64,000 nt of DNA, taken from positions 1-64,000 of IMG/VR virus record IMGVR_UViG_3300022893_000001; one strand, 5' to 3'. Below the pieces are notes generated by a model. That model saw only the letters and a list, made by a program, of their open reading frames with translations. It was not told the origin of the DNA and made no database searches. The translations under genes and the position numbers were made by a program. Positions within the stretch are counted from its first letter, which is position 1. Each line of letters starts with the position of its first letter. Of this stretch, positions 3,177 to 39,654 are shown piece after piece. This DNA comes from a virus (taxonomy: Duplodnaviria; Caudoviricetes).

Positions 3177-5435
3177 TTGATCGCCGATACCGATTCAAAG
3201 ACTGTCGTCACGCCCGCGGATTTCATCCAGACCCACTCGACCGCCCTCGGCAAGTGGATCCTGGAAGACCTCGACCGCCCGCTCTCGGCCGCGCGCGCCG
3301 CGCAACTCCTGCGCGCCAAAAAAGCCCTCTATTACTGGGAGGGAAAACAGTATGGGCATCTCAAATACGACGCGCACCTGGGCTCGTTCGACTGGGTTCC
3401 GCTCGACTTCAAAGAGGAAGTGCAGAGGGTTTTCGCGAACGTCTATAACATCGTGTACGCCGATGGGCAGAAGTTCAACTCGCTCGTAGGCCAGCGCAGA
3501 TTGAATCAGAAGGCAGTCGCTGACGACGCGCAGAATTTCACGCAGACGGCGGTGGCTTCGAAAGCCAACACGATGGCGAAGCACTTACTGAGGTATTGGA
3601 AGCTGCAACGCCGCGCCCCGAATGAAATTGCCGAAGTGGTTTGGAACACCGGCCCGGTATTCGGCTTTGTCGACCACGTCGTCGATGGAAGGAAGCACGG
3701 CTATCACAACGAACCGATTTACGGGACCGAAGAGGTCGAAGGGCCCGGCGAACTGCTCTGCCCGGTGTGCGGCGGCAAGAGCCCCGAGGACAGCCCCCAG
3801 TGCGTCAACTGCGGCTCGCCGCTCGATCCGGCGACGGCCCCGAAGATCCCCGGCCCCCCGATCCAGCAAACGGTGCAGCAGGGCGAGCAGTCCTACGCCA
3901 AGGGGATGCCCGAACTGCAACTGCTCTCCTGCATCCAGGTCATGACGCCGTACGACGCCAAATGGGTCGACGACGATCTTGAGTGGCTCGACTACTCGTA
4001 CCCGCTCTCGAAGCTCAAAGCCAAGCTGGTGCTCCAGCGGCTCAACGCCGCTAAGAAAGATCTCACGCCGCTCGCCGACTGGGACTCGGACGAGAACGTA
4101 GCCGAAGCCGGCAGGATCCTCGAAGAGATCCAGAACCCGAATGACCGCACGATTGACCGCACGCAAGAGACGGTGTCCTACGGCCGGCGATGGTTGAACC
4201 CCTGCGCCTACGACGGGATGCCGCGCGCCATGCGCCGCGCCGCCGAAAAGATGTTCATGGATGGGTGCTTGATTCACCGCATGGGCGGGAAGCCGGTGGC
4301 TATCGATGCGACGAAGATGACCGAGCACTGGAGCGTGTGCAAGGCGGGCACGAATTGCTATATCAACGGGCCCGGCTTAGTCCACAACGTGATGGGCCAA
4401 CAGGACTCGATCAACAATTTTTGGAATATGGCGGATGAAATTATTATGAGGGGGATTCCGAAGCACATCGTCGATTCGCAAGTGCTCAATCCCGAGACGG
4501 TGAAGAAGTCCGGTACCGTCAACGAGCTCTTGTTCACGAGGACCGGCGGCGTCGATTTGAGTAAGGCATTCGTCACGATTCCCACGGCGCAACTCCATCA
4601 AGGGCTCATGCCGGTGGCCGAGATGATGCGCCAGTACACGCGCGAGGCAGACAACATTCAGCCCGCGTTATTCGGTGGCGGCGACCCCGCTCCGACCTGG
4701 CGTCAGGATCAGCAACAAAAAGCCGGCGCGTTGCAGGGACTGCAGTTACCCTTCGAGGGGATGCAAAACTTCGTGAGCGACATTTTAGAGGACGGCGTGC
4801 GCCTGGGCGCGCGGCACGGCGTGGGGATGGTGTCGGTCCCATCGTCCGGATTCGGCGAGATTGGCGAGTCCATCGACCTGGCCGATCTCGAAGAAGAGGG
4901 TTGGCATATCGAGGCGGTCGACACCGCGCCGCAGTCGTTCACCGAGAAGGTGACGAAGCTATCGGGCCTCTCGCAAGAGGCTCCGCAATTGGCCCAGAGC
5001 ATTGGGTTGGGCCATCCGATTAACGCCGCGCAAACCAAGGCATATTTCGGCGTAGATGACTTCTATGCCCCCGGCGAGTTCCTCTATCAGACGGTAATGA
5101 ACCGCATTCAGAAGCTGCTCTCCGAGCCCACGATCCCGCCGCAGATCGACCCGAACACCGGACAGCCGGTGCTCGATCAGATGGGCGTGCCGGCGGTCGA
5201 AACCAGTTCGATCCCCATCGATCCGTTCCTCGACACCGACCACACCACCATCGCGACGATCATCCGCGAATGGTGCATGAGCCCCGCCGGCCAACAGGCT
5301 TCCGAAGACCCCGGCCAGTATTTCAATAACGTCAAATTGCATGGGCAGGAGCAGGACGCCGCCGCGCAAGCGGCGATGATGCAACAGGCGATGGCAGCGG
5401 CCCCGCCCGCAGAAAATGCTGCACCGCCCGCATAA
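3177..5435 (+). CDS. Portal protein (podovirus-like) with inserted zinc ribbon
   Basis: 752 aa, lies between terminase and scaffold/capsid genes, helical core, Q/P/A-rich C-terminus; CxxC..CxxC at 3759-3815. Confidence 0.8.
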   Translation: MIADTDSKTVVTPADFIQTHSTALGKWILEDLDRPLSAARAAQLLRAKKALYYWEGKQYGHLKYDAHLGSFDWVPLDFKEEVQRVFANVYNIVYADGQKFNSLVGQRRLNQKAVADDAQNFTQTAVASKANTMAKHLLRYWKLQRRAPNEIAEVVWNTGPVFGFVDHVVDGRKHGYHNEPIYGTEEVEGPGELLCPVCGGKSPEDSPQCVNCGSPLDPATAPKIPGPPIQQTVQQGEQSYAKGMPELQLLSCIQVMTPYDAKWVDDDLEWLDYSYPLSKLKAKLVLQRLNAAKKDLTPLADWDSDENVAEAGRILEEIQNPNDRTIDRTQETVSYGRRWLNPCAYDGMPRAMRRAAEKMFMDGCLIHRMGGKPVAIDATKMTEHWSVCKAGTNCYINGPGLVHNVMGQQDSINNFWNMADEIIMRGIPKHIVDSQVLNPETVKKSGTVNELLFTRTGGVDLSKAFVTIPTAQLHQGLMPVAEMMRQYTREADNIQPALFGGGDPAPTWRQDQQQKAGALQGLQLPFEGMQNFVSDILEDGVRLGARHGVGMVSVPSSGFGEIGESIDLADLEEEGWHIEAVDTAPQSFTEKVTKLSGLSQEAPQLAQSIGLGHPINAAQTKAYFGVDDFYAPGEFLYQTVMNRIQKLLSEPTIPPQIDPNTGQPVLDQMGVPAVETSSIPIDPFLDTDHTTIATIIREWCMSPAGQQASEDPGQYFNNVKLHGQEQDAAAQAAMMQQAMAAAPPAENAAPPA

Positions 5436-22743: not shown

Positions 22744-25700
22744 ATGGCAGCGCCATCCCTAGCAGCCCCCAAAGGCTTCGATCTCGACGGAGCACGCCGG
22801 GAGGGTTACAACGATACCGAGATCGCGGACTACCTCGCCGGCTCGCGGGGCTTCGATATTGCCGGGGCGCGCAAAGAAGGCTATTCCGATCAAGAGATAA
22901 TCGGGCACCTCAACAAGCCGAAAGCGATGGCGTCGACCGTGCCTGGGGCCGAGCGCACCGGCACGCCTGGTCTGCAGAAGACGGCGGCGATCCCGCCCGA
23001 GCTCGGCGGGCCTCCCACGCCCAGGCAGGAACCTCAGCAGCCTACCCCGATGGCACCGCCCGACTATTCGGCGGGCGATCTCTACCAATCCAATCAGCCT
23101 ACCGACCTTGGTTTCGAGCCAACCGTGGACCCCTTCTCAACAGGTCCAGCGCGCGCGCCTCGTCCTCAGATGACCCAGCAAGCCGCTGGCGACGAGATGA
23201 CCCGCGTGGCGCGCGGGGACGTGGGAGCATCGCCCTATCCGAAGCCAGGCCGCTTGCCGATCCTCGGCGGGCGAGTGGCCCCCAAGCCTTTCTACCAGCT
23301 TGAGAAGCCCGGTGTCGCGGGCATCCCCGGCACCGAGCGCACCGGGTTGCCCGGCGTCCAATCAGTGGCCCAACCGCGAGTGGAGTATGACCCGCTCGGC
23401 GCGCGCCCAGACGCGCAGTATTTAGCCAAGCTGCACGCCGGTATCCCGGTCGAATCCGACGAGATCCCCAGTGCCCAGTCGATGCCAGGCGCGGCCGGGC
23501 TGATCTCGAAAGTCGGTTCACGCAGCGCACTGGGAGTGGTTAAATCGCTGGGCACCTCCGGGAGACTTCTCGGCGACACGCCCGGCCAGCGCGGCATGAT
23601 CGGGCTGAAACAAGCGGGCACAGCCATCGAGGACGTCACGCAACTGATGCTCGATCAGATCCCGCCGCCTACCCTGGAAGAATCCCACCTGATCGGCAGC
23701 AAGAACTTCGTTGAGGATCCGAACCAGCTTCGCAATCCCTATTACATGGCGAACCTGGGAGCCAATGCCGGCGGCTCGATGGTGGCCTTCATGCTGCCGG
23801 AAATTGCGCTCTTCCGAGGCGCTGCCTTGGCGGCTACCGGCGCGCGCGCTGGCGTGCTCTCTTCGATTGCCGAGACGATGGCGAACTCGGCAGAGGTCTA
23901 CCAACAGGCCAAAGACGCGGGCATGAGCGAGATCGAAGCCGCTGACCTGTTCCGCAAGAACATCCCCCTCGATTTCCCGATCACCTACGGGATGAACCGG
24001 CTGGGGATCTTCAACGACAAGCTCAAGAGCAGAACGGCTCGCGCGGTTCTCAGCCCGGTCACCGAAGCCGCGCAGGAAGTGGGTCAGGCGGTTCCCCAGA
24101 ACTACTTACTCAAGCAGCCGCTCTTCAAGGGATGGGAAGAGAACGCCCTCGGCTCCGCGTTCGGCGGTCCAGTCGGGGCGATGATGAGCCCGGTCGACAC
24201 TTTGATGGGCGCACCGCCCACGCCGCACCACGACACCACGCAGTACCAACCTGGCCCGCAGGGCCCGCAAACCTCCAGGTACCCGCTGTTAAGCCAGGCT
24301 GGAACAGCGGCCCCCGTCGTTCCGCCCTCGGCCCCGCACCACGAGCTTCCCCCGGACCCATACGAAGGGCCCCTCGACGCCTACGGCGGCGGCGCGGCCC
24401 GAGAAGCGCCAGCGGTCCCCACGGTGTCTCCCTTCCCACGGGTTCAGACTCCCCCGCCTGGCGTCGACCTGGGCCATGTGCGGCCGCTCGACAAGGAAGG
24501 GGAGAAGCCGCCAGAGCAGACTGCGCCGCCGGAACAGAAGCAACCTCCTCCGCCGCCCCCGAATGTGGACGCGGTCTACGAGGACGCGAAGACCTTCGCC
24601 GCGGATCTTCCGGAGCTCGGCGTAGGCGCGATCCGCCGGCAGTTCGGCGTCACCAAGGACGATGCCCGCGTGATCCTCGACCGCATGGTCGCAGACGGGC
24701 TCTTCGCGCAGAAGGAATTGAAGGGCGGCGGCACCTCGTTCGTCAACCTCGCCTGGCAGCGCGGCCAGGCCGGCAAGGGGATGGTGACCAAGGGCAAAGG
24801 CGTTGAGGAAGCTGTCTCCGAGTTCCTTCCGCCGGATGAGGAAGAGGAGGCTCCGCCGCCAGGCCAGCAAGCCCCGCCCCCCGGCCAGCCGCCGCCCTCA
24901 TCGCTTGAAGATCAACGAAAGGAGGGGGAAGAACAGAGACAACAAGAGCCGCCAGCATTGGGGCAGGCACCTCCGCCTGCCACAGCGGCCCCTCCCCAGA
25001 TCGACGCGGGCAAGGTCACCTCGATTGAGGAGCGCCCCGAGCGGCCACCCGAGCCCCGGCTCGCCGAAGACGTATTCGAGATGGATCCGAATACCATCGA
25101 GGCCGATCCGGTTCGCTTCCAGTTCAAACGGGATACCGGCGGCAAGGCTGGAGTAGGCGATGAACTGAAAGACCCAGACGTCCCCTGGAACCGCCGGATG
25201 GCCGGCACAATCACCGTCTGGAAAGACCCGGCAGACGGCAAGACCTACGTCGTCAACGGGCACCACCGGCTTGAGAAAGCCCAGCGCATGGGCGTTCCCA
25301 GTATCAAAGTGCAGTATTCCACTGCAAAAACGGCCCAGGAAGCCAGGGCCGAGGGCGCGCTCGACAACATCGCCGAGGGCAGAGGCACCGCCATCGACGC
25401 GGCCAAGTTCCTGCGCGACACCGGCATCACTCCCGAGGAAGCCAAGGGGCGCGGCGTTCACCTCAAAGGCGAAAAGGCCAGGCAGGGTACCGCGCTCGCC
25501 AAGCTGCCAGACAGGCTCTTCGAACAGATCCTGAGCGGAGACTTGAACGTCGAACGGGCCACGATTATCGGCGAAGGGCTCACCAATCCGGACGACATGC
25601 TGGCAGTGGCAGAGGCCGGCTCGAAGATGAACGACGCCCAGTTGCGGGAACTCATCCGGCGTCAGAGCGGCCGAGCTCGAACCGAAGAGACTCAGGTTTC

Positions 25701-28700
25701 CCTGTTCGGGGAAGACGTCATCTCGAAGAGTCTGATCCGCGAAGAGGCCACGCTGTCGGAAGCCATCCGGAAGCAACTCTCGAACGAGAAGCGGCTGTTC
25801 GCCACAGTCGGAACCAAGGGCGCAGCGACGACGCTTGAACAGGGCGGGAACGTCATCGCTACCGACAAGAACCGCGCCATCGCCGATGCCGCCGCGCAGG
25901 CTCTGGAGATCTATGACCGTCTGAGTCTACAGACTGGTCCGGTTGCCGATGCCTTAGCCGCCGGGGCCAAGGAGATGGCCGGCGGCGCGAACTTTGCTAC
26001 CGTCAGGGAGAACACTTATGCCGCAGTCCGAAACGCCGTACAGGAAGCTATCGGCGGAGGAAAAGAATCGCGTGCTGGACAGCCTCAGGCGCAAGATCGA
26101 GGCCGGGACGCTGGTACCGGAGAACGAGCACCCGCCGGCCCAGCAAAAGCAGCCCCCGCAAAAGTAGAGGAGATCGGCAAGGTCACCTCGGTCGAGCAGG
26201 GCGAGACATTCACCGCGCGGATGCAAGCCGCCGAGACTGCCGATGAGGGGCGGAAGATCCTGGGCGAGGCCGAGAAGGCCATTGGTAGCCTGCAGCAGGA
26301 CATTGGCGTCACGCCTACAGTTGGACAGGTCGAGCCGAATTACTTTGTAGGGCTCCACGTTCTTAACGACAAAACCATCAAGAAGGCGGTCAAAGAGGCC
26401 CAGGCCAAAGATCCGGCCAAGGCGGCGCAACTCGAAGCCATGATGCGCGACGCCTTCCACGCTCGCGAGAAGGAATGGCCGCGCCTCCAGGGCATCGAGG
26501 ACCAGAGGGAAGCGGATCGCTACGAGGAATTCAAGGCCCAGCGAGGACCGAAACTCCCGAAGGAACTGACCAAAGCCGCCCCGCGCTACGGCGCATTCGA
26601 ACTCCAGTTTGAGTCCGATGTTGACAAGGCTGCGTACATCACAGCCCAGGCGAAACCCTCCAAGCGGGATGCCGACTATCTCAAATTTGTGATGGACGCC
26701 ACCGGCAAGTCGGAGGCCGAGGTCCGGAAGGCAGGAGCCGCCATCCGCGCCTCCCTCAAGACGATAGCGAAGGGCGCTGATCCCGCCGATGGCCCGCTTG
26801 AGGTTCCTCTTCATGTCCAGGTGAAACCGGGCGAGGACTTGGGCCGCGTCTCCTCCGTAGAGGCGAAGCCGAAGCAGACCGGCCCCATGAGCCCGCTCGG
26901 CAAGATGGGGCCGGCCAAACCGAAAGCGGCGGTCTACCACGGGGACGTCTCCGACCGGGAAATCACCGAGGAGAATCTCAAGAACGACGTTGAGACGGGC
27001 GTCTGGCGCTTCGCCACCGCGCGCGGGCGCACCGGCAAGGGCCGCACCGGCACGGTCTACACCAACCAGGCGGGGATGCGCGTCCTGCAAAACGTCTTCG
27101 AGATGGAACGGCTTGAGGGCGTCTCGATGGACGACGTCAATGTCGCCAAGCTGCTCACCGCCCTCGACAAGAATCTCAGTCTGAGGGATCTGAGTCCGGA
27201 AGGCCGCGCCGCCCTGAGGGAGTTCAAGAAGAATCTGAACGAGTACCGGCAGCAGCATGGGCCCGGCGCATCCATCAGCTTTGTTGTGGCCGAGCGCGGC
27301 CACGGCATGGGCATCCGCAAGACGATCCGCGAGGAACTGATTCACGGCATTCAGCGCATCTTCGGGATTAACTCCGTGGACACCGTCGAAAACATGCTGC
27401 TGATGCCGGCCTTTGACAAGGCGTGGACGTGGCTGGAAGAAAACGGGTACCCAGATATAGGGGCGATGGACGCTCTCGACGAGATTACCGCCAAGGTGCT
27501 CGCCGGGGAGGATGTAGGGCTTACCCTGGAAGAGCAGCTTACGGTAGCCAAAGCCTACCGAAAGGCGCTGATCGAAGCACACGGTAACGACGTAGTCACA
27601 CTGTTCCGATACGTCAAAGCCGGCGAGGTGAAGGAGACATTCCGTGGCACAGAGACGCGAAAAGAAGATGGTGGACGCGCCGCCCCAGTTCAGCAAGAAA
27701 GCGGTTTCGAACTTCAACGAGGCGCAGTTAGCGGCCGAGGCGGCACGGTTAGCCGGGGAGGACGAGGAGAAGGCGTTCGAGAACGCCTTACGCTCTCGGT
27801 GGAGCCAGTCGGGCGAATCACCCGATTCCTCCGAAGACTCCACGGCGGGTCGCAAGCCCAGTTAGTTCAGGCGTCCAACGGCAAATACTACGTCGTCAAG
27901 TTCGCCGACAACCCGCAGGACGCGCGGGTTCCCGTCAACGAACTGATAGCCGGGCGTCTCTTCCACGCGCTTGGCTTCAAGACCCCGCTGCCGGTGGTTC
28001 TCGAATATGGCGGGGACCAGGATCTGTCCTACGTCTGGCACGGCGGGAAGGAACTGAAGATCAAGGCCGGCCCGGCAATCGCCACCGAGTTCGTCGTCGA
28101 CCCCGAGCGCGGCGGCAAGGTCTATGACGAACTGCGGGACAGCGACTTCTCCAAGGTGACCAACGTTTCCGACCTGGTCAATGCCCTGGTGGTCGACAAG
28201 TGGCTCGCCAACTGGGACTCGCGCCAGGCAGTCTTCCACGCAGACAGTTCCGGCGAAGGCTATGTCGTCACGCTGATCGATCACGGCTTCGTCTTCAACG
28301 GCGATAGTTGGCAGTTCAAGACCAACGCTTGGTCCGGTGTGTACCACCAGCAGAACGTCTACGATGGCGTCCGGTCGATGGACGACTTTGCCCCCACCAT
28401 CGAAAAGATCCGGAAGCTCGATCCGGATTACATCCGTAGCATGTTTGAGGCGGTCCCGGAAGAGTACAAGGAATTCGCCGATGACGAAGACCGGGGGCAT
28501 CTGGCCGATGAAGTAATCAAACGCCGCGCCAAGCTCGAAGACTTCATCCTCGAACTCACTAACGTCAAATTCGGCCAGTTCACATTCAACAACTGGGAAG
28601 GTCACAAGGCGCGGAGGCCCGGCCAGGGGTTGCTGTTCTCGCGCAAGAAGAACACGATTCAGGGCGAGCAGAGTCAACTTGGGTTGTTCGACCTGGCCGC

Positions 28701-31700
28701 GACAGCCGCGACAGGCCAGGTCCAGCATGTAACCGCCGAGGGGCTCACCAAGCCCGAAGCGCGCGAGACGGTCGCCTGGCTTGAGAAGGCCGATCTGCCT
28801 GGCTCGGTCGAAGCGGCCAAGGTTCTCGAAGCGGCTGTAGCGGATGCGCCGGCCAAGGAACCCGTCAAGTTTGAGACGACCGAGGCTCCTGCCGAGACGA
28901 AGGAGCCCGCTGCCGAGACGGGGAAACGGGGCGAGCAGACCCGCATCGAGATGGAGGAGCAGCCCGACAACGAGGCGATCCTCCAGGGCGAGCGCCTCAC
29001 CGCGGCGTTTGCCGGGGAGCTCTCGCCGGAAGAGAAGCGCCGGAAGCTGAAGCGGGCCGAGGTCGAACAGACCGGGCTCTTCGAGACGAGCGAGGAGAGG
29101 GTAGAGCGTCCTGGGCTGCTGTTCCGCCGGGACGACCGGAAGACCACCAGCGCCCGGGCCATCAAATACCTGGCAGACCTGGCGAGCGGCAAGGTCAAAC
29201 CCAACTGGTCCCATGCCTACGAGGCGGTGACCCGGCTCATCACCTCGGCCAAGTCCAAGGAATACAACTCGCCCGATCTGCTCGTCACCGGCCAGGGCTT
29301 CGAGAAGAAAGCAGACGGCACCTGGAAGAACCCGGAAGCCATCAAGCGGGCCGTCAACCTGATCAAGAACTATGCGAACTTCGACGGCAAGAAGTACGCG
29401 AACGACGAGGCGCGCATCGAGGCTTTCGTAGAGCACGTCAAAGAGAACCTGATCTGGCTGTACAAGAAGTACGAGGCGCAGCACGGCGATCTGATCAAGC
29501 GGGCCAAGCAGTGGTACGACGGAGGCCGGAAGCTCGCCGAACGCTACGCCAAGGTGGCCGGCGTCGAACCGCACCAGATGAGCGCGGTGATCGCGGTCCT
29601 CTCGCCGAAGAAGGATTGGTTTCAGAACATAGACCTGGCGCGGCGCATCGCCGATTTCTGGGCGATCCGCCACAAAGTGAAGTGGAACGCCCCGGCGATG
29701 GAAAAGGGCTACGCCAAGATGCTCAAGTCCAAAGCCGAGATGGACGAGGACACTCGGAAGAAGACGGAGAAGCGGAACAAGGTCAGGCGGGCCAGGCTCA
29801 ACGCCAAGAATTCCAGAGGGAGGAAGAAGGCTAGGGAAACGGGCGTGGCCTTCGAGGCGGCGGTCTTCGAAGCCGAGGTTTTCACCCCGAGCCGCGACCT
29901 GCAGAAAGCGTACGCGCGCATCCGAGGGAAGGCGTTCGCCGAGATCAAGCGGCCCTATGACCGCGCGGTCTGGATGCGAATGTGGGACGAGGGCCACCAC
30001 AGCCGGAACTACAACGTCCTGACGCCCGAGGGCGAGTCGCAGGGCGTCGCAACCTCGACCGCCGAGAAGACCAAGGGCAAACCCCTGACGTCGGTCTGGC
30101 AGAGTTACGACGCCGTCACCAAGGCGCTCTCGATCCTCGATGACGGCTCGATGAAGAACATCAGCGCCAAGCTGGGCAAGCAGCACAAGGTGCGGTCCTT
30201 CTACAACAACATCGTCGATCCGGACTCGCCGAACCTCCACGTCACCATCGACACCCACGCGGTGGCGGCGGGCTTCCTGCGGCCGCTCGGCCAGTGGGAC
30301 AAGGAGGTCAAGGACAATCTCAACGCGCCCTCCAAGGTGAGCGGCGAATCGCCCACCTACGGTCTGGTGGCGCGGGCCTACCGGGAAGCGGCGGCGGAGA
30401 TGGGACTCCTGCCGCGCGAATTCCAGTCCATCACCTGGGAAGCGGTGCGCGGGCTGTTCTCGCCGTCGTTCAAAAAGGGTAATAAAACTGTCATAAAGAA
30501 CATCTGGATCGATGTTGCGCAAGGTAAAATTACAGCAGCAGCAGCGAGAGAGAAGATCTATGGCCTTGCAGGAAAAATCGATAGACCGGCATGGGCTGGA
30601 GCAATACCGGGACGAGTTTCCGATACTCGAACAGATGTTGGACGACAAGCTGCCGCTGACACGAAGGCAGTACCTGGGCATGGCGCACCCCGGAGCGGAT
30701 CCGAACGTGCCGCTGGACATGGAACTGGAGGCGGAACTGCCGCCGCCGTTCGTGCACCCGAGTCTAAAAGAGGAACTGAACCCCGACGAGGAGTAGGGAC
30801 CGTCCAGCGGGCCCTCGGCTTTGGTCCCGGCGGCGTCTGGGGCACTCCCAACGACTGGGTCGAACGCTCGGCCTTCAAATTCGCCACCAAACCCAGTCAG
30901 ACCGGCTCGGTCTATGCGAACCGATCCGCGATGAATCTCATCGGGTATGTCATCAGGGACACCAAGACCACCGGGGCTTCTTTCGGTTCTCAGACAATCC
31001 AGATTCTCCTCGACGCCCTCGACGGCAAGCCCGTCCCCGCTGCCAAGTGGGAGAAGCTCAACCTCAACGACCTGTCTGCCAATGCGCACAAGGAACTGGC
31101 GAAGTTCCGCGCACAGATCGTCAACTGGAAGAACACGATCCAGGCCGCTGATCCCCAGGCTTCGCTGAACTTCGTGCTGGCGTCTCCAGCCGAGACGATG
31201 GAGTACGTCAAGGAGACGGCGAGCGAAGAGTACATACACGGGGCCCAGCGCCACTCCCCGGTTGGTATGCCGGCCCTCGTGGGGATGATGAAGACCGCGC
31301 CCTTCCAGAGCGGCTGGAAGCGTCTGATCCAGATTGGCTACGACGTCTCGATTGACCCGGCTGACAGCATACAGGACATCCATAGGAAAGCCATCGAGGC
31401 TTTCAACGAAGTCACCGCCAAGGTGCTCAGTGGGCAGGAGCTCGGTCTGTCGCTGGCCGAGCGCATCGAGATCGCCAAAGCCTACCGGAAGGCGCTCATC
31501 AACTTCCACGGCAGCGACACCGTCCTCCTCCGGTTCAAGTACGTCAAAGCGGGGGCGGTGAGGGACGCCTTCTTTGATAAGCAGCCTGCGGCGACCGCCG
31601 CGCCCGTGCCCGCTGCCGCTACGACGCCGCCGTCGAACTTCCTCAGTTGGGTGCGCCAGGCGGCGGGGATTGCGCCCCGAATTGAGGAGCGCCAGGCACC

Positions 31701-34700
31701 GGCCCGGCGGATCGAGGAACGTGAACAGACCGAGACGGCCCCGGATGTAATGAAGGCTCGCCGGCCCCCGCAGCAGCCGCAGCAGCCCGCTACCCAGGCG
31801 GTCACCACCACCACGCAGCCGCCGGCTACCGGAGCCGCCGCGCCCGCGATGTCCCGCTCGGCGCGCTTCGACCAACTCAACGAGACGGTAGACCAGACCG
31901 GCAAGGAGCGGGACAAGACCCGGTACGAGAAGTTCAAGGAGTCGCTGACGACCTTCGGCCACTCGATGACGCGCCAGTTCGTCGACATCCCGGCCGGCGC
32001 GACCTACGCCAGTTTCAAGCAGAAGCTGAACTTCGTATCGAAGGCGCAGGGCACCGCCATCCACAAAGCCGCCCAGGCCATCATCGACCAACTCGAGAAG
32101 CTCTCCCCGGCGCAGTACGACGCTTTCGTTCGCGTCATCTTCTACGACGATCTCTCCGCGCGCGTCAAACAGCAGATCGCGGAGGGTACGCCTGTCCTCG
32201 ACAAGGACATTGGCTGGGGCATCAAGGACTCACACGAGCTCTACGCCATGCGGGCCGAGGCGCGCGACCGGGTCCGGAACGATCCACAGATCGTCGAAGC
32301 CCTCCGCCAGCGCAAGGCCATGTGGGCGAAGATCAAGCCCGAGTACATCGCCGCCATGAAGAAGGCGGGCGTCGATATCGAGAAAGCCCTCTCGCGCAAA
32401 GACTACTTCCGCCATCGTGTGATCGAGCATCTCCAAGCCCAGGAGTTACCTGGGAACGAGGGGACCGGAGCCGGCCAGCGGTTCAAGCTGCCCACCGGCC
32501 GATCCTGGCTCAAGAAGGCGCACGTCAACGCCAAGGCGTACTCCATCGACTACATTCGCGCCGAGTTCGAAGTACTCAGCGAGATGATGTACGACACCGA
32601 GAGGGCCGGATTCATCGGCTGGTTGAAGCACGACAGCGGCCACAACATCGCCCCGCGGCTAATGCGCCAGGCGGCGGCGCATAACAAGAAAGTCATCATG
32701 CCGACCTTCGTCAAGATGGCGAAGTATTACAACAAGAAGAATCCCCGCGCGACCCCGGTGACCGCCGAGATGATGTACCAGCGCGTCATGAAGTCGCGCC
32801 CGAATGACCCAGGTTGGCGCACGCGCGTCACCAAGCGGATGGCCGGCGCGGATTACATCGGGAGCCTGGAGAAGGCATACAATACGTTCGCTCTCAAGAC
32901 CCACCAGATCTATACGGCGGATAAGCGGGACCACTTCTTCTTTAAGCCCACGATCTCAGACGCGCTCGCCAATGCCATCGAGGCGGCGGGCATGGGTACG
33001 GTCCTCGCCAATCAGATCCAGAAGCTCAAGGTCAAGGGCAAGCGCCGGGGGCAGATGGTCCTGCCGCGTGAAGTCATCGAAACGATGAAAGAGTTCATGC
33101 AGCCCCCGTCCGACAAGACGAGTAAGTGGACCGAGAAGCTCTGGACGAAGCCTATGGGCTGGTGGAAGCAGTCTAAGCTGATCCATCCCGTCTCGGTGGT
33201 CAAGTACAACCTCAGGAACCTGTCGGGCGATCTGGAGCGCGTGGTGATCGCCAACCCGAAAGCACTCAAGATGGTTGGGCGGTCCACAATGGAGATCCGC
33301 CAGTTCCTCAAGACCGGCAAGCCGCCGTCGAAGGAGTTCGAGGCATGGTGGCGGCGCGGCGGCATGGACGCAAACCTCCAGGTAGCCGAGATCGGGGACG
33401 TCAACAAACTCAGAAAGCTCAAGCACCTCAGAGAGGACTTCCGCTCGACCAGCACGGCGGATAAGGGAATAGACTACGCCGTCGATAAGTGGGAGCGCGT
33501 CTGGGGCAAAACGCGACAGTTGACCGATTTCCGCGAAGGGATTTTGCGCTACGCCACGTTCCTCGAATATCAACGCCAGATCGCCGCGAATGCCGGCGGG
33601 CGTCCGGATAACTTTGGAGCCTCGCTCCGCGACGAAGTCATGGCGATCCGGAACCATGATGACCGGGCCTACAAACTATCGAATGATCTGATGCTCGCCT
33701 ACGACGAGGTGTCTGCGCTCGGCCAGAGACTCCGCCGGAACTGGGTTCCCTTCTGGAGCTTCCAAGAAAAGAACGCCCAGGCATACAAGCGGCTCGTGGG
33801 CAACGCCGTCGCGGATGGCAGAACCTCGGCGGCGATAGGCTACGCCGCACTCGGAGGCGCTGCCGTGGCGGCGCGCGTGGGTGTCTATACAGCCGCCAAG
33901 GTGGGCAAGACGCTCACACTGGCGCTGGCGCTCAAGACCCTGAGCGAACTGTGGAACAACTACGTCTTCGACGATGAGGAAGACGACCTCCCGGAGAACG
34001 TCAGGAAGAGTTCGCATATCATCCTGGGCCGGGACGCAAATGGCAAAGTGCTGGCCTTCACGCGCGTGGGCACCTCGGACGATCTGCTCGAATGGGGCGG
34101 GCTCGAAGCCGCGCCGTACTACGTGCGCGAGTACCTCAACGGCCGGATGAGCTACGAGGATCTGGCTAAGGAGATCGCCTTCCGACCCTTCGGCGTCCCG
34201 ATTCCGCTCAAGCCGGCGTTCAACAAGATCGCCCAGTCGATCACGCCGTTCATCAAGACGACCGCTGAACTGGCGAGCGGGCGCGCCTGGTTCCCGAACT
34301 TCTTTGAACAGCGCGAGATTCGCAGCCGGGGCGAGTACATCGCCCGCGAGCTCGGTGTGACCGCCCTCTACAAAGCCGCGTGGAGTAAGCCGCAGCCCAA
34401 GGTCTTCTCGGTCGACAAGCTGCTCGACCTCTTCGTATATCGGTACGATCCCGGCGAAACACACTACAACGCTTTCAAATACGATAAGGTCGCAAAATGG
34501 GGGGCCGAACATGGCGAAGATCCCGGCGGCGGGCTCTCGCAGAAGAAAGCGGCCCAGGCGCTCTATGACATCCGCATGGCTATCCGGTATGACGACGAGC
34601 GGGCCCAGGCGGCGGCGCTCATCGCCTACAAAGAAGTCGGCGGCACCAGGGCGAATCTCAAAGAATCGATTGATCGCCTGCACCCGCTCGGGAGCCTCAA

Positions 34701-34866
34701 GAAATCCCTGCGCGACGAGTACAAGAAGTCTCTGAGCCCCGCCGAAGCGATCCAACTGCAGAAGGCGGAACTATTCTGGGTTGAGAACTTCCAGTCCAAG
34801 TGGAAGGCGCTCGACCGGGCCGCTGCGGCCGCGAAGCTGCCCGATAAGAAAGTGAGGAAGAAGTAA
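22744..34866 (+). CDS. Giant polyvalent virion-associated protein (4040 aa): ParB-like, zincin-like x2, HipA-like kinase, HhH-glycosylase-like, LPD38-like
   Basis: 12.1-kb open frame; YVVNGHHR (25246-25269); REELIHG (27328) and SEEYIHG (31222); GGSQA/YVVKF/NELIA/DKWLANWDSR/LIDHG (about 27800-28290); WY..SP..W..N..K..SF..NI..VTIDTHA..QSITW (about 29500-30440); DDLPENVRKSSHIILGRD near C-terminus. Confidence 0.85.
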   Translation: MAAPSLAAPKGFDLDGARREGYNDTEIADYLAGSRGFDIAGARKEGYSDQEIIGHLNKPKAMASTVPGAERTGTPGLQKTAAIPPELGGPPTPRQEPQQPTPMAPPDYSAGDLYQSNQPTDLGFEPTVDPFSTGPARAPRPQMTQQAAGDEMTRVARGDVGASPYPKPGRLPILGGRVAPKPFYQLEKPGVAGIPGTERTGLPGVQSVAQPRVEYDPLGARPDAQYLAKLHAGIPVESDEIPSAQSMPGAAGLISKVGSRSALGVVKSLGTSGRLLGDTPGQRGMIGLKQAGTAIEDVTQLMLDQIPPPTLEESHLIGSKNFVEDPNQLRNPYYMANLGANAGGSMVAFMLPEIALFRGAALAATGARAGVLSSIAETMANSAEVYQQAKDAGMSEIEAADLFRKNIPLDFPITYGMNRLGIFNDKLKSRTARAVLSPVTEAAQEVGQAVPQNYLLKQPLFKGWEENALGSAFGGPVGAMMSPVDTLMGAPPTPHHDTTQYQPGPQGPQTSRYPLLSQAGTAAPVVPPSAPHHELPPDPYEGPLDAYGGGAAREAPAVPTVSPFPRVQTPPPGVDLGHVRPLDKEGEKPPEQTAPPEQKQPPPPPPNVDAVYEDAKTFAADLPELGVGAIRRQFGVTKDDARVILDRMVADGLFAQKELKGGGTSFVNLAWQRGQAGKGMVTKGKGVEEAVSEFLPPDEEEEAPPPGQQAPPPGQPPPSSLEDQRKEGEEQRQQEPPALGQAPPPATAAPPQIDAGKVTSIEERPERPPEPRLAEDVFEMDPNTIEADPVRFQFKRDTGGKAGVGDELKDPDVPWNRRMAGTITVWKDPADGKTYVVNGHHRLEKAQRMGVPSIKVQYSTAKTAQEARAEGALDNIAEGRGTAIDAAKFLRDTGITPEEAKGRGVHLKGEKARQGTALAKLPDRLFEQILSGDLNVERATIIGEGLTNPDDMLAVAEAGSKMNDAQLRELIRRQSGRARTEETQVSLFGEDVISKSLIREEATLSEAIRKQLSNEKRLFATVGTKGAATTLEQGGNVIATDKNRAIADAAAQALEIYDRLSLQTGPVADALAAGAKEMAGGANFATVRENTYAAVRNAVQEAIGGGKESRAGQPQAQDRGRDAGTGERAPAGPAKAAPAKVEEIGKVTSVEQGETFTARMQAAETADEGRKILGEAEKAIGSLQQDIGVTPTVGQVEPNYFVGLHVLNDKTIKKAVKEAQAKDPAKAAQLEAMMRDAFHAREKEWPRLQGIEDQREADRYEEFKAQRGPKLPKELTKAAPRYGAFELQFESDVDKAAYITAQAKPSKRDADYLKFVMDATGKSEAEVRKAGAAIRASLKTIAKGADPADGPLEVPLHVQVKPGEDLGRVSSVEAKPKQTGPMSPLGKMGPAKPKAAVYHGDVSDREITEENLKNDVETGVWRFATARGRTGKGRTGTVYTNQAGMRVLQNVFEMERLEGVSMDDVNVAKLLTALDKNLSLRDLSPEGRAALREFKKNLNEYRQQHGPGASISFVVAERGHGMGIRKTIREELIHGIQRIFGINSVDTVENMLLMPAFDKAWTWLEENGYPDIGAMDALDEITAKVLAGEDVGLTLEEQLTVAKAYRKALIEAHGNDVVTLFRYVKAGEVKETFRGTETRKEDGGRAAPVQQESGFELQRGAVSGRGGTVSRGGRGEGVRERLTLSVEPVGRITRFLRRLHGGSQAQLVQASNGKYYVVKFADNPQDARVPVNELIAGRLFHALGFKTPLPVVLEYGGDQDLSYVWHGGKELKIKAGPAIATEFVVDPERGGKVYDELRDSDFSKVTNVSDLVNALVVDKWLANWDSRQAVFHADSSGEGYVVTLIDHGFVFNGDSWQFKTNAWSGVYHQQNVYDGVRSMDDFAPTIEKIRKLDPDYIRSMFEAVPEEYKEFADDEDRGHLADEVIKRRAKLEDFILELTNVKFGQFTFNNWEGHKARRPGQGLLFSRKKNTIQGEQSQLGLFDLAATAATGQVQHVTAEGLTKPEARETVAWLEKADLPGSVEAAKVLEAAVADAPAKEPVKFETTEAPAETKEPAAETGKRGEQTRIEMEEQPDNEAILQGERLTAAFAGELSPEEKRRKLKRAEVEQTGLFETSEERVERPGLLFRRDDRKTTSARAIKYLADLASGKVKPNWSHAYEAVTRLITSAKSKEYNSPDLLVTGQGFEKKADGTWKNPEAIKRAVNLIKNYANFDGKKYANDEARIEAFVEHVKENLIWLYKKYEAQHGDLIKRAKQWYDGGRKLAERYAKVAGVEPHQMSAVIAVLSPKKDWFQNIDLARRIADFWAIRHKVKWNAPAMEKGYAKMLKSKAEMDEDTRKKTEKRNKVRRARLNAKNSRGRKKARETGVAFEAAVFEAEVFTPSRDLQKAYARIRGKAFAEIKRPYDRAVWMRMWDEGHHSRNYNVLTPEGESQGVATSTAEKTKGKPLTSVWQSYDAVTKALSILDDGSMKNISAKLGKQHKVRSFYNNIVDPDSPNLHVTIDTHAVAAGFLRPLGQWDKEVKDNLNAPSKVSGESPTYGLVARAYREAAAEMGLLPREFQSITWEAVRGLFSPSFKKGNKTVIKNIWIDVAQGKITAAAAREKIYGLAGKIDRPAWAGAIPGRVSDTRTDVGRQAAADTKAVPGHGAPRSGSERAAGHGTGGGTAAAVRAPESKRGTEPRRGVGTVQRALGFGPGGVWGTPNDWVERSAFKFATKPSQTGSVYANRSAMNLIGYVIRDTKTTGASFGSQTIQILLDALDGKPVPAAKWEKLNLNDLSANAHKELAKFRAQIVNWKNTIQAADPQASLNFVLASPAETMEYVKETASEEYIHGAQRHSPVGMPALVGMMKTAPFQSGWKRLIQIGYDVSIDPADSIQDIHRKAIEAFNEVTAKVLSGQELGLSLAERIEIAKAYRKALINFHGSDTVLLRFKYVKAGAVRDAFFDKQPAATAAPVPAAATTPPSNFLSWVRQAAGIAPRIEERQAPARRIEEREQTETAPDVMKARRPPQQPQQPATQAVTTTTQPPATGAAAPAMSRSARFDQLNETVDQTGKERDKTRYEKFKESLTTFGHSMTRQFVDIPAGATYASFKQKLNFVSKAQGTAIHKAAQAIIDQLEKLSPAQYDAFVRVIFYDDLSARVKQQIAEGTPVLDKDIGWGIKDSHELYAMRAEARDRVRNDPQIVEALRQRKAMWAKIKPEYIAAMKKAGVDIEKALSRKDYFRHRVIEHLQAQELPGNEGTGAGQRFKLPTGRSWLKKAHVNAKAYSIDYIRAEFEVLSEMMYDTERAGFIGWLKHDSGHNIAPRLMRQAAAHNKKVIMPTFVKMAKYYNKKNPRATPVTAEMMYQRVMKSRPNDPGWRTRVTKRMAGADYIGSLEKAYNTFALKTHQIYTADKRDHFFFKPTISDALANAIEAAGMGTVLANQIQKLKVKGKRRGQMVLPREVIETMKEFMQPPSDKTSKWTEKLWTKPMGWWKQSKLIHPVSVVKYNLRNLSGDLERVVIANPKALKMVGRSTMEIRQFLKTGKPPSKEFEAWWRRGGMDANLQVAEIGDVNKLRKLKHLREDFRSTSTADKGIDYAVDKWERVWGKTRQLTDFREGILRYATFLEYQRQIAANAGGRPDNFGASLRDEVMAIRNHDDRAYKLSNDLMLAYDEVSALGQRLRRNWVPFWSFQEKNAQAYKRLVGNAVADGRTSAAIGYAALGGAAVAARVGVYTAAKVGKTLTLALALKTLSELWNNYVFDDEEDDLPENVRKSSHIILGRDANGKVLAFTRVGTSDDLLEWGGLEAAPYYVREYLNGRMSYEDLAKEIAFRPFGVPIPLKPAFNKIAQSITPFIKTTAELASGRAWFPNFFEQREIRSRGEYIARELGVTALYKAAWSKPQPKVFSVDKLLDLFVYRYDPGETHYNAFKYDKVAKWGAEHGEDPGGGLSQKKAAQALYDIRMAIRYDDERAQAAALIAYKEVGGTRANLKESIDRLHPLGSLKKSLRDEYKKSLSPAEAIQLQKAELFWVENFQSKWKALDRAAAAAKLPDKKVRKK
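26018..26167 (+). CDS. Nested gene 1 (49 aa, +1 frame in giant gene): MPQSETPYRKLSAEEKNRVLDSLRRKIEAGTLVPENEHPPAQQKQPPQK
   Basis: AGGGAG at 26005-26010, 7 nt before ATG; amphipathic helix; G/C-ending codons move to this frame; below the ORF-track length cutoff. Confidence 0.6.
   Translation: MPQSETPYRKLSAEEKNRVLDSLRRKIEAGTLVPENEHPPAQQKQPPQK
27644..27865 (+). CDS. Nested gene 2 (73 aa, +1 frame) directly upstream of and overlapping the kinase domain
   Basis: AAGGAG at 27631-27636, 7 nt before GTG; helical FSKKAVSNFNEAQLAAEAARLAGEDEEKAFENALRSRW; host frame reads as G/R-rich filler. Confidence 0.65.
   Translation: MAQRREKKMVDAPPQFSKKAVSNFNEAQLAAEAARLAGEDEEKAFENALRSRWSQSGESPDSSEDSTAGRKPS
30560..30796 (+). 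CDS. Nested gene 3 (78 aa, +1 frame) right after the glycosylase-like domain
   Basis: GAGAGAG 7 nt before ATG 30560; globular acidic PILEQMLDDKLPLTRRQYLGMAHP..DMELEAELPPPF; host frame is G/A/R filler; AT-rich patch with TAAAAT upstream. Confidence 0.7.
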   Translation: MALQEKSIDRHGLEQYRDEFPILEQMLDDKLPLTRRQYLGMAHPGADPNVPLDMELEAELPPPFVHPSLKEELNPDEE

Positions 34867-35446: not shown

Positions 35447-38400
35447 GTGAAGAGAACCGTCGAGCTTGAGGCGATCATCGTTCGCCCGAATCTGCTTGTG
35501 ACCCTGAACGGGTCAACCGATTTCGTCATCTCTCTGCAGGCGGGTCAACCGATACCCGGCCCGGTTGGTCCCCCCGGTCCCCAAGGCATACCCGGCCCGG
35601 TTGGTCCCCAAGGCATACCCGGAAACACGGGCCCCAAAGGCGATAAAGGCGATACCGGAAGCACCGGAGCCACGGGCAGTACCGGAGCCACCGGAAGCCA
35701 GGGCCCCCCAGGCAATACAGGCCCCCAAGGCATACCCGGTGTCCCCGGCGAAATTGGTCCGGTTGGTCCCGCTGGCAGCACCGGCAGCACTGGAGCCACG
35801 GGCCCCCAAGGCATTCAAGGCATACCCGGAGTCCCCGGAACGCAAGGCCCCCAAGGCATCCAAGGCAACCCCGGAGCCAAAGGTGATACCGGCACCGCCG
35901 GCACGCCCGGCGCTCCTGGTGCGATCTCGATTGTGCAGGATGAAGGCATCGCGGTCCCAGTTCAGAACACGCTGAACTTCGTGGGGGCGGGCGTCACGGT
36001 CACCAACGATGCGCCTGGCACTCGAACTCTCATCACCATCCCCGGCGCAACCGCTGGCGCGAATCAGACGCCCTGGACGAGCGACATAGACGCCGCGAAC
36101 TTCAACCTCCATAGCGCGGGCGGGATTGGCCTGGGCGTAGGAACCTCGGCGCAAGTTAGCGTTGGAATCACTGTCGGCGGCACGTCGATCTTCGACAGCC
36201 TCTCGCAACTCAACGGACTCGCGGCCGGCTGGGCCGGCATCTCTCTGCAAAGCGACGGCGGCAAGGGGCTGACCCTGAGAGTCCAGGGTTCGGCCAGAGC
36301 TTTTCCGAATATCGCCGAGCTCGCGCTCAACAACGTCCCGCTCGTCTTCAGGATGGATAACAACGAGCGGATGAGGCTCATCCCCTCAGGGCTGCTCGGC
36401 ATCGGCAAAGTCCCGGCCACTTACAGGCTGGAGGTGGCTGGAGACGTGGACGTGACCGGAACCTACAGGGTTAACGGTGTCCCCTTCACCTCTGGTCAAC
36501 CCCAGACGCCTTGGGCGCAGGACATCAACGCCGCCACCTTCAAGCTCAACAACTCTGGCGGGATCGGCATAGGCGTGGCCTCGCCCACTCAGGCTCTGCA
36601 CGTAGCCAAAGCAGACAACAACGACGTTATCCTGGTTTCCGGCTCTAGCACCAGCGTGTACATGGCGTTCCAGTCGAACGCCACGTCTGGCCGCATCACG
36701 CACTTTAATGGCTCGGCATGGGGGAATATTCTCCTCGCCCCGTTCGGCGGAAAAGTGGGCATCGGCATCCCCGCTACGATCAACTACCCGCTCGACGTTG
36801 TAGGTGATGTCAACATCTCTGCCGGCAGTGTCTACCGCATCAACGGTGTCCCGCTTAGTACCGGCGTGCCTACTTCCAGGCAAGTGATTGCCGGGACCGG
36901 CATGTCTGGCGGCGGCGCACTGACTGCGGATGTAACTTTGAATGCGCTGCCCATGATCGCGAGCGGCGCGACGGGGCGCGGCGGTACTGTACCCACGCCA
37001 GGAGCGACGGCGGGATCGACTAAGTTCCTCCGCGAGGACGCAACGTGGGGAGTCCCGGTGGGCGCGGCCCAGACGCCTTGGCTCACCGATATTAACGGCA
37101 ACGGCAAGATCCTCTACAGTGTCGCTGCCATAGGCATTCAGGTAGCCAGCCCACAGGTTGCCCTGCAAATAGCCGGTCAAATCTGGTCAACCGCCGACAC
37201 AGTCATCCTGGAATACGCCGCCCATAGTAGCGGGTACGGGCGGGTAGGATGCATGAGCTTCCATCCGTTGACACTCTGGACTAACCAATTGGAGCGGATG
37301 CGGATCACCGCCGCAGGCGCTATCGGCATCGGCAACAGCACTCCATTCTCGAAGTTGAGTTTCGGCAACACGGACCCCACCTCTGCATCCCGTATCGCTT
37401 TCTACGAGGCACCGGACGGACTAAGTTTTCGTGGCATCGGCATGTGCAACCCGACAGGAGCCACCTGGGGGGTGGCTATCTGGGCACACGGCACCCTTGC
37501 ACCAACGGAAACCAATGCCAGAGTATTCGTTCAGGACAACGGCAACGTGGGGATCGGCACGACGGCACCCGCGCACGCGCTCGACATTGTAGGCAACTGC
37601 AACATCACCGGCCAGTATCTAGTCAATGGCGTCCCCATCAGCACTGGTGGCGCGGCCCAAACCCCGTGGACCTCCAACATTGACGGTGGCGGGTTCAGCC
37701 TGTCCAATGTCGCGCGGATCTCCACCACCAGCACTCTCGCACTCGTCATGGACTCTCCCGCCGCTACCGCCTGCCAGATGTACTTCCAGACCGCAGGCGC
37801 AAACAAGTGGGCAGTCGGCAAAGGCGCAGGCGACAACAGCGACGACTACAACATCTACTCCTTTATCGCTCCCGGCATTATTGTGCGAGTCAAACCGGAT
37901 GGCAATTTTATTGTTACCGGCCCAATGTCGTTCAATACATCCATTATCGGCAACGGTAAGGCCGTCGCAGAGACATCGGATGCCTATCTGCGTCTCAACC
38001 AGTCCAACCAGTTCAGCCTCGGTATCTGGCTCGGTCCCAGTGCCGTAAAGATGGCTGGCGGGCATTTATACATAGGCACCAACGGCGCCGACACCGGATC
38101 TATTGACATTTCCGCCACTGCTTCGGACACCGTGAACCGAATCACCATAAACGGCAATGCCGGTGGCGGCATCATATGCAGAAACCGCATCACCCTGTCT
38201 AGTGATAACGTCACCGGGACATATGCGTCAGCCGCCATGGAAGTTCGCCAGACCAATGAGACGCAAGGTGTAGCTGGCGATAACACCTATGCTCCCCGTA
38301 TTGGCTTTCACTGGACCGGGGCGGTAGCTTCGCAAATCGGCATGGACGGCAACGGCATAATCCGCACGTTCAACAATCCAGGGACGGGATATGAGCAATT

Positions 38401-38950
38401 TGCCTGCTCCTACCTGACTGCGTATGGCAACGTCAACGTCACGGGCGGCTACTACGTCAATGGCGTAGCCCTCGCCACGGGCCAAGCCCAGACGCCGTGG
38501 GCACAGGCGATAAATGGCAATGGGCAAACTCTCACCGGAGTGTCCGGTATAGGCATCAACTCCGGCTTGGTCAACTCGCACAAGCTAACCGTCATCCCCG
38601 CTGCCAATCCCGGTACTGGTACCGTCGGGGATTACCCTGTTGTCATTGGGGAGTCCTCAAACAACAGCGTCTACCGCCTATGCTTCGGCTATGGCGTGTA
38701 CTACTCGGGCGTTTATAGCGGGTCGATCCAGGTGTATAGTAACAGTGCCCCGGGGTTCCTGTACCTGAACCACATGCCGGGGGCAGCAGCAGGCGTTTGC
38801 ATAGGAGTCCCCGCCTATACGTCTCTCACCCAGGCTTGGGTCAAGAACATGACCGTGTGCATGGCCCTCGACGACACCGGTAACAGGCTGTACTTCTATG
38901 TGCGTAACAATGGCGCGGTAATGAAAACCGGTTACGTTACCCTAGTGTAG
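35447..38950 (+). CDS. Collagen-like fibre with five QTPW modules
   Basis: About 40 G-X-Y triplets (35551-35925), then QTPW..DI(D/N) units at 36065, 36503, 37070, 37658, 38489, and ERMRI..G..GIG / L(D/E)V.G.V...YR.NGVP motifs. Confidence 0.85.
35551..35925 (+). repeat. Collagen G-X-Y coding repeat
   Basis: GPQGIPG/GSTGATG units; exact 22-bp DNA repeat ATACCCGGCCCGGTTGGTCCCC at 35552 and 35588. Confidence 0.9.
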
Positions 38951-39612: not shown

Positions 39613-39654
39613 TTGCGCAAAGCCCCGTTTCACTGTATTCTGGCTTTGCGCAAA
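39613..39654 (+). promoter_or_regulatory. Sigma70-type promoter with two TTGCGCAA palindromes
   Basis: TTGCGC (39613-39618)-N17-TATTCT (39636-39641); palindromes at 39613-39620 and 39645-39654 (TTTGCGCAAA). Confidence 0.65.

Follow-up and report, generated by a model that had tools for sequence, protein, structure and literature searches.

Introduction

In phage lambda and its relatives, the Rz/Rz1 spanin genes occur in embedded (+1 frame), overlapped and separated architectures, and their products interact (PMC6139136). Architecturally, this is the closest known case to the one described here, a 78-codon open reading frame (ORF) located on the + strand at positions 30560-30796 of IMG/VR virus record IMGVR_UViG_3300022893_000001, inside and in the +1 frame of a gene (22744-34866, + strand) for a 4040-amino acid (aa) polyvalent virion-type protein. 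The source genome has 72.9 kb and a guanine + cytosine (GC) content of 62%, and the stretch that was analysed, called the window throughout this text, is its first 64 kb. As in Rz/Rz1, of which both products are made, the smaller gene is contained completely within the larger one and is read in the +1 frame; elsewhere the two members of the pair are also found overlapping or separate. However, spanins disrupt the outer membrane, the function considered here is unrelated to this, and no sequence similarity is claimed. Moreover, the host is in this case a 12-kb multidomain virion gene, with the nested gene placed at a domain boundary at which the host frame encodes just a linker, and a single sequence family shows all three architectures, which that study did not see within single spanin families (PMC6139136).

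The nested gene directly follows the region of the host gene that encodes DUF7178, a probable glycosylase-like domain, and a second group of systems can be compared with it. In colicin DNase-immunity and barnase-barstar pairs, the inhibitor gene is placed directly after the enzyme domain, so that the inhibitor is synthesised along with the enzyme and protects the producer. The small gene behind DUF7178 shares this position, and its product is small and acidic, as are the colicin immunity proteins, barstar, Ugi and p56. Unlike in toxin-immunity pairs, DUF7178 is sometimes present without the small gene, and neither sequence nor fold similarity to those pairs was found. Ugi and p56 are protein inhibitors of uracil-DNA glycosylase, UDG (PMC3711442, PMC3902945), and differ in that they act on an enzyme of the host, the fold of which is another (UDG family 1). 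DUF7178 has a predicted fold similar to that of the HhH-GPD glycosylases (endonuclease III, Ogg/AGOG, MutY, AlkA and MagIII) and of Qng1/DUF2419, although searches of the Protein Data Bank (PDB) returned no sequence-level match of DUF7178 to the solved glycosylases. To our knowledge, no protein inhibitor of an HhH-GPD glycosylase has been described.

The host protein resembles the polyvalent proteins surveyed by Iyer et al. 2017 (PMC5512222) in being a giant multidomain protein, encoded in a virion module, whose enzyme modules are carried on linkers. The DUF7178 module and the embedded partner gene are additions to that survey, in whose text the words "glycosylase", "frameshift" and "overlap" are absent (PMC5512222).

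Here, we propose that the nested ORF is an overlapping gene translated on its own, the product of which would be a partner of DUF7178, most likely masking or inhibiting its DNA-binding cleft. We assign to this reading a probability of about 0.5.

A Coding Frame Nested behind the DUF7178 Domain

Read from the sequence, the nested ORF starts with an ATG at 30560 and ends with a TAG at 30794-30796, being located entirely within 22744-34866 and in a different frame (+1). The predicted product of 78 aa has an isoelectric point (pI) of 4.46, with 18 acidic residues (Asp + Glu) and 7 basic ones (Lys + Arg), and contains the motifs PLTRxxYL and ELEAELP. An acidic 78-aa ORF nested in a larger frame was the core of the original prediction, and its coordinates, frame and acidity agree with this translation; all the other sequence features named there were likewise found where they had been placed.

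Codon-position composition carries a strong signal in the nested frame. Over the whole 4040-aa ORF, the GC content at positions 1/2/3 is 0.65/0.45/0.79, and immediately 5' of the nested ORF the GC content at third positions (GC3) of the host frame is 0.85-0.97. Over approximately 30520-30800, host GC3 goes down to 0.25-0.42, and positions 1 and 2 of the same frame go up to about 0.8. When this stretch is re-phased to the nested frame, the values become approximately 0.80/0.40/0.85, the usual coding signature of the genome. Given this phase switch, the signal of the nested ORF exceeds chance.

Comparison of related loci points in the same direction. In 22 independent pairs, nucleotide differences fall on nested-frame positions 1/2/3 in the proportion 70/47/215, and amino-acid differences number 108 in the nested frame vs 239 in the host frame. 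Thus, the small protein appears to be the constrained reading of these nucleotides, and the host reading a tolerant linker. Judged from codon composition, from these substitutions and from the family described below, the nested ORF is a genuine gene that codes for protein, and its frame is under selection.

Two other places of the host gene show a switch of this kind to the same +1 frame, 25924-26253 and 27574-27873 (host GC3 0.40-0.50), which coincide with two further nested ORFs, ORF1 and ORF2 (the latter at 27644-27865). A further candidate at 24784-25053 was rejected, its phase signal in GC3 being weaker (host GC3 about 0.6) and the stretch being Pro-rich.

A Large Family of Small Acidic Proteins

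A word-based search with the nested protein returned just the protein itself. When 60 IMG/VR loci encoding DUF7178 relatives (28-43% identity) were fetched and explored by tblastn and iterated hidden Markov models (HMMs), similar small proteins were found right behind DUF7178 in many of them. A profile built from 13 small proteins was then searched against 1.84 billion representatives, and this search recovered 1,937 cluster representatives at E<=1e-3, 440 of them at E<=1e-10, nearly all with 50-110 aa. The median pI of the family is 4.69 and its median net charge -6.

An HMM of 60 representatives, from which the protein of the window had been excluded, recovered the ORF 30497-30793, in the nested frame, with an E-value of 1.3e-11 (40.7 bits), and gave no second match below E 8 among the six-frame ORFs of the 72.9-kb genome. 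The family pattern consists of a nearly invariant Asp before helix 2, Pro-x-Thr-Arg-x-x-Tyr, Pro, Glu-x-Glu and Pro, and the corresponding residues are all present in the nested protein (D20, P32, T34, R35, Y38, P48, E55, E57 and P61, query numbering), in which the usual Glu-Asn of the TRENY stretch is replaced by Arg-Gln.

Scans of the small protein and at least nine relatives against Pfam, PHROG and NCBIfam assigned them to no family, and the names given to family members in databases are at best "hypothetical protein". Searches of PDB sequences, with single sequences and with profiles, gave nothing meaningful. An AlphaFold2 (AF2) model of the 78-aa protein consists of short helices, with a predicted local distance difference test (pLDDT) score of 74; the fold search with this model reached at best Z 2.3 among PDB representatives and E 0.09 in BFVD, the latter with an unnamed viral protein of 77 aa, and the ESM Atlas returned just an unnamed viral cluster (score 0.78). 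As regards DNA mimic proteins (Ugi, p56, Ocr, ArdA), the acidic surface of which imitates the phosphate backbone, what was observed is an acidic protein with mostly non-acidic conserved residues and with fold matches no better than these values. On the basis of these profile comparisons, the nested protein is a member of a large, new, unannotated family linked to DUF7178.

Variants of the family were also seen. Tandem-duplicated forms, with two repeats per chain, are P0002, P0003 and P0041 (L063, 342-911). In GenBank OP947163.1 (Rhodobacteraceae phage LS06-2018-MD07; L161), a +1-frame ORF at 3366-3608 gives a weak family match (E 0.002) and is unannotated within a gene of more than 9 kb called "methyltransferase", which also contains DUF7178.

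Association with DUF7178 and Gene Layouts

The association of the small gene with DUF7178 was assessed from the side of the small protein: two of its motifs were back-translated and searched for in IMG/VR, neighbours being ignored in the selection. The motif IPLTRENYL gave 23 loci, 22 of which are real members, each of them preceded directly by DUF7178 on the same strand; the remaining locus is a chance hit in a giant-virus contig. The motif PVTRENYL gave 73 loci, all of them real members, with DUF7178 directly upstream, on the same strand and in relative frame +1, in 68; two of the others have DUF7178 close by (convergent, or about 450 nucleotides (nt) upstream), and three are cut by the contig end. 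Thus, DUF7178 adjoins the small gene in 92 of the 92 assessable motif-selected viral loci, and in 90 of them it immediately precedes the small gene, on the same strand. The original prediction had proposed an HMM search for homologues and their neighbours, expecting the same glycosylase-like domain beside them, and this is the neighbour that was found. At the window's locus, the nested ATG lies 46 nt before the end of DUF7178 (30606), in frame +1, so that the small gene immediately adjoins the enzyme domain; this layout is the same in the 90 motif-selected loci.

Several layouts of the two genes exist. The small gene is embedded as in the window in L032. It stands alone, with an overlap of 40-60 nt at the end of the DUF7178 gene, in L001, L003, L013, L023, L027-30, L035 and L040; it is convergent, on the opposite strand, in L034 and L002; and it is placed 3.6 kb downstream of DUF7178 in L006 and L007, which together with L105 represent the separated copies. 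Stand-alone homologues, which the original prediction had expected from a resemblance to small phage proteins, do therefore exist (e.g., L003, L035, L040, L027-30, L083 and L086). Among the 150 best representatives, no in-frame fusion of DUF7178 and the small protein was observed. The most economical reading of this linkage, drawn from gene neighbourhoods, is that the small protein would be a specific binding partner of DUF7178.

At many DUF7178 loci missed by the strict profile, the position behind the domain is still occupied by a divergent ORF in the +1 frame, whose product has a Pro-Met-Thr-Gln-Glu-Ser-Phe/Tyr-Leu stretch and, after it, Leu-Pro-x-Trp-Phe. In L054, L056 and L057-L060, the family is replaced directly after DUF7178 by a different small ORF, very acidic and in the +2 frame; unrelated proteins, likewise small and acidic, may fill the slot behind this domain.

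Dual Coding in the Host Gene

In the host frame, the nucleotides that follow DUF7178 (30607-30849, + strand) encode a low-complexity stretch, rich in Gly, Ala, Arg, Pro, Thr and Ser, which joins DUF7178 to the next module, as had been supposed when the host reading was called a linker. The nested gene, read in its alternative frame, encodes this linker, which is free of host-frame stops. The next module (30850-31572, + strand) is the second of two zincin-like modules of the host protein, homologous to the one at about 26980-27640 (BLASTP, 35% identity, E 4e-38), and lacks a start codon of its own. The homology between them begins at query residue 17, which corresponds to nt 30850, and the first in-frame ATG, GTG or TTG past the nested stop is located at 30931; thus, the downstream module must be read through the nested gene.

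Other loci allow this double reading to be evaluated in a wider set. The DUF7178 ORF extends beyond the end of the small ORF in 58 of 68 PVTRENYL loci and in most IPLTRENYL loci, the excess ranging from 5 nt to over 4 kb. After grouping into 28 clusters at 60% core identity, the synonymous codons of each small gene were resampled according to the codon usage of its own locus: the host frame is stop-free across the small gene in 17 of the 28 clusters, vs 2.31 +/- 1.36 expected, and the 11 non-embedded clusters carry 1-10 host-frame stops. The presence of stops in these non-embedded clusters indicates that an open host frame is selected where something lies downstream. According to these sequence data, both frames are functional at the nested locus, and dual coding is kept by selection in many phage lineages.

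Gene callers discard embedded genes, and this case constitutes a large and well-supported example of selected dual coding across many phage lineages.

The host gene matches DUF7178 (PF23802), phrog_3842 and the C-terminal part of the portal-associated profile phrog_21, and its product contains ParB-like, zincin-like, kinase-like and other enzyme modules joined by linkers. A tail-fibre gene (35447-38950) is located directly downstream. Taking into account this position just 5' of the tail-fibre gene, and that related DUF7178 genes are found in head modules, the host gene is considered part of the virion (late) module. No relatives of the remainder of the giant protein were found among the DUF7178 loci, and none of the downstream module in IMG/VR. 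It can also be observed that the first zincin-like module is followed by nested ORF2, and that the second is preceded by the nested gene at 30560-30796, the third such ORF of the host gene (ORF3).

The DUF7178 Domain as a Probable DNA Glycosylase

The DUF7178 domain occupies 29500-30606 (+ strand, host frame), and its last 15 codons or so overlap the start of the nested gene. It was recognised by PF23802 (E 8e-26), the match spanning host residues 2455-2569. Its AF2 model has a pLDDT of 89.8. In a VIA-align fold search with this model, Ogg from Thermotoga was the top match (Z 8.5), and the best 20 ranged between Z 8.5 and 5.5, most of the next 19 chains being AGOG, endonuclease III, MutY, MagIII, AlkA, OGG1, ROS1 or Qng1 (DUF2419), a glycosylase of queuosine salvage. 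These matches cover residues 1-320 of the 369 in the model, with Z values that are moderate for an all-helical protein; Foldseek against the PDB gave nothing below E 0.9.

In an alignment of 32 DUF7178 sequences, K230 and the triad D251-T-H (251-253), 21 residues apart, are invariant, as are W5, Y6, S35, W40, N43, R160, R232, F234-N237, P241, T249, Y287, Q309-S and W313. HhH-GPD glycosylases have a two-lobed helical fold with a helix-hairpin-helix; their catalytic Asp is placed about 20 residues past the latter, and bifunctional members also have a Lys. Endonuclease III of E. coli has Lys120 and Val-Asp138-Thr-His, and we take the invariant Lys and Asp-Thr-His of DUF7178 to resemble this pair, by comparison of the spacing and of the Asp-Thr-His motif and not by superposition of residues. 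Taking together the fold matches and these invariant residues, DUF7178 is probably a DNA glycosylase/lyase-like enzyme with an HhH-GPD-like fold, and the label "glycosylase-like", which the original prediction had given to this domain, thus agrees with the fold search. A literature search for DUF7178 found no paper.

The domain in the window is strongly basic (pI 10.0, net charge +27). Much of this charge is supplied by a Lys/Arg-rich insertion at 29700-29860 (DUF7178 residues about 75-131), which is absent from the relatives and is modelled as a long helical hairpin.

Possible Role of the Small Protein

In the original prediction, the nested protein was suggested to be an acidic inhibitor, or a DNA mimic, of the adjacent DNA-acting domain. 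That the small protein masks or inhibits its partner is plausible by analogy with the colicin-immunity, barnase-barstar and Ugi-UDG pairs. According to this proposal, the nested gene would be transcribed within the late virion mRNA, ribosomes would be loaded on its AU-rich and weakly structured region at 30478-30555, and translation would be initiated at the ATG at 30560. The resulting 78-aa acidic protein would bind the glycosylase-like DUF7178 domain translated from the same message, and the basic DNA-binding or active cleft of the latter could in this way be masked while the giant protein is made and packed beside phage DNA. Read in the host frame, the same nucleotides would provide the flexible linker that leads from DUF7178 to the second zincin-like module.

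Several observations weigh against this proposal. The most conserved residues of the family are Pro, Thr, Arg, Tyr and Asn, and this mostly non-acidic set is unlike the acidic array typical of DNA mimics. DUF7178 also occurs without a detectable family member, as in Roseobacter phage CRP-738 (gp40, directly after the portal gene), in phage zth2-2 and in several IMG/VR loci such as L004 and L037. This is the opposite of what would be predicted for an obligatory immunity protein, and a small protein that the enzyme can do without is more readily explained as a modulator than as a strict immunity protein. Conversely, two members examined outside IMG/VR have no DUF7178 nearby: L062 (2372-2554) is a high-scoring member in a 113-kb contig, beside FtsZ, MinD and MinE genes, which looks bacterial and not viral, and in L063 the member (P0002) is encoded in a head module, before the scaffold and major head genes, and the 345 nt available on its upstream side contain no DUF7178. 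As regards the window itself, blastn against GenBank phages left the region unmatched and no close relative of this phage was found, so that the case for selection on this copy depends on codon-position composition; and, for this single locus, an open host frame is no more than mildly improbable (P = 0.058-0.12, synonymous resampling).

The most serious rival explanation is that the small protein is indeed a cognate partner of DUF7178, but one that acts as an activating or specificity subunit, or as a folding or packaging chaperone, instead of as an inhibitor. We consider this possible, without thinking it probable. It draws on the same evidence of linkage, and it owes its weight to the two first points listed above: an enzyme able to exist alone is what an accessory factor would predict, and conservation falls on polar or aromatic residues (Thr-Arg-x-x-Tyr), which do not form an acidic array. 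The setting in head morphogenesis, after the portal gene in CRP-738 and before the scaffold and capsid genes in L063, is also in keeping with it. However, positive evidence for activation or chaperoning is lacking, and an acidic protein encoded directly behind a basic DNA-binding enzyme domain reproduces the classic layout of nuclease inhibitors.

An action of the small protein on a host target, for instance as a DNA mimic directed against a defence or repair enzyme, with the gene merely hitch-hiking with DUF7178, seems unlikely. The protein is acidic, Ugi and p56 are of similar size (PMC3711442), and the two family members located away from DUF7178 would be accommodated by such a role. Nevertheless, hitch-hiking would not preserve the adjacency of DUF7178 in 92 of 92 assessable viral loci, across divergent phages and three architectures, and the gene lies within a late virion gene, with no sigma-70-like early promoter found in 29800-31300.

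Even less probable, in our opinion, is a programmed +1 frameshift generating a truncated DUF7178 isoform with an acidic tail in place of a free 78-aa protein. A relative frame of +1 in nearly all the loci, together with a 40-60 nt overlap of the two frames at the end of the domain, might suggest such a mechanism. Nonetheless, an ATG is present upstream of the conserved core in 68 of 70 distinct family members (with a median of 27.5 upstream codons), 62 of these 68 have a Shine-Dalgarno-like 4-mer, and the convergent, separated and +2-frame copies (L034, L002, L006, L007, L105, L035 and L040) cannot arise by frameshifting. Independent initiation is thus favoured. Finally, out-of-frame ORFs are common in GC-rich DNA and no close relative was found with which the ratio of nonsynonymous to synonymous substitutions (dN/dS) could be calculated for this copy, but a chance open frame, or the decaying and unexpressed relic of a once separate gene, is scarcely credible in view of the strong codon-position signal of the nested frame, its intact start, Shine-Dalgarno-like stretch and stop, and the presence of all the nearly invariant family residues.

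Returning to the masking of DUF7178 by its small partner, a bolder extension can be formulated, which we regard as rather doubtful. HhH-GPD-type DNA glycosylases could have in this family their first protein inhibitor, or else an obligate regulatory subunit, delivered by overprinting in the linker that follows the enzyme within giant phage proteins that are injected or packaged, so that enzyme and antidote would come from one message; and, as three +1-frame ORFs are placed at domain boundaries of this host protein, embedded partners might possibly be a general and hitherto unannotated design rule of polyvalent phage proteins. Whatever the role of the small protein, DUF7178 gains a predicted fold, a likely chemistry and a candidate for a specific small-protein partner, and their pairing offers a direct handle for testing the role of this virion-borne enzyme. 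If the small protein were an inhibitor, it would define a new class of glycosylase inhibitors, which could be used as a tool as Ugi has been.

The Region Upstream of the Nested Start Codon

The segment at 30478-30532 (+ strand) has a GC content of 0.345 and contains TAAAAT (30525-30530) and TTGCGCAA (30515-30522), in agreement with the unusually AT-rich stretch, carrying both elements, that had been described upstream of the nested ORF. It is the lowest-GC 55-nt segment of the 12-kb ORF (0.03% of segments) and is among the lowest 0.1% by GC in the 64-kb window. This patch still encodes part of the C-terminal region of DUF7178, as a stretch rich in Lys, Asn and Ile, the counterparts of which in relatives are also Lys/Asn-rich, and a milder dip in GC is observed at the same place in most of 17 relatives checked. 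Its synonymous sites are shifted towards AT too (host GC3 0.41 vs 0.89 upstream). The predicted folding energy of the 80 nt at 30464-30543 is -11.3 kcal/mol, vs a mean of -24.5 (standard deviation 5.5), which makes it the third least structured of about 600 segments of the host gene. A purine-rich, Shine-Dalgarno-like stretch, GAGAGAGAAG, follows at 30546-30555 (+ strand), ending 4 nt before the nested ATG.

The original prediction had interpreted the patch as promoter-like, and the nested ORF as possibly expressed early. A scan for sigma-70-like -35/-10 pairs, with a spacing of 16-18 nt, returned none in 29800-31300, TAAAAT alone being present, and the gene is included in the late virion module; early expression from an internal promoter is not supported. 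The scan covers sigma-70-type promoters only, and thus leaves room for an internal promoter of another (non-sigma-70) type upstream of the nested gene. Taking into account that the patch codes for Lys and Asn, that its synonymous sites are AT-shifted, that its structure is weak and that GAGAGAGAAG follows it, a translation-initiation region fits better than a promoter. In this sense, the patch would be an AU-rich, unstructured ribosome-loading region on a late mRNA.

The octamer TTGCGCAA occurs four times in the window, vs 1.39 expected, a marginal excess in that 4 of 100 shuffled sequences also reach four. The other three sites share with 30515-30522 just the 8-mer and one or two flanking bases, and promoter scans at them found nothing. 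It had been stated that this 8-mer is also present at two early promoters; with no sigma-70-like promoter at its other sites and no alignment of the sites past the 8-mer, it was rejected as a shared promoter element. Two of its copies lie 33 bp apart at 39613-39653, inside a short direct repeat in which a simple scan found no sigma-70-like promoter. This repeat is located in the gap of about 900 nt that separates the tail-fibre gene from a gene with its start at 39877, and could be an operator or a regulatory repeat.

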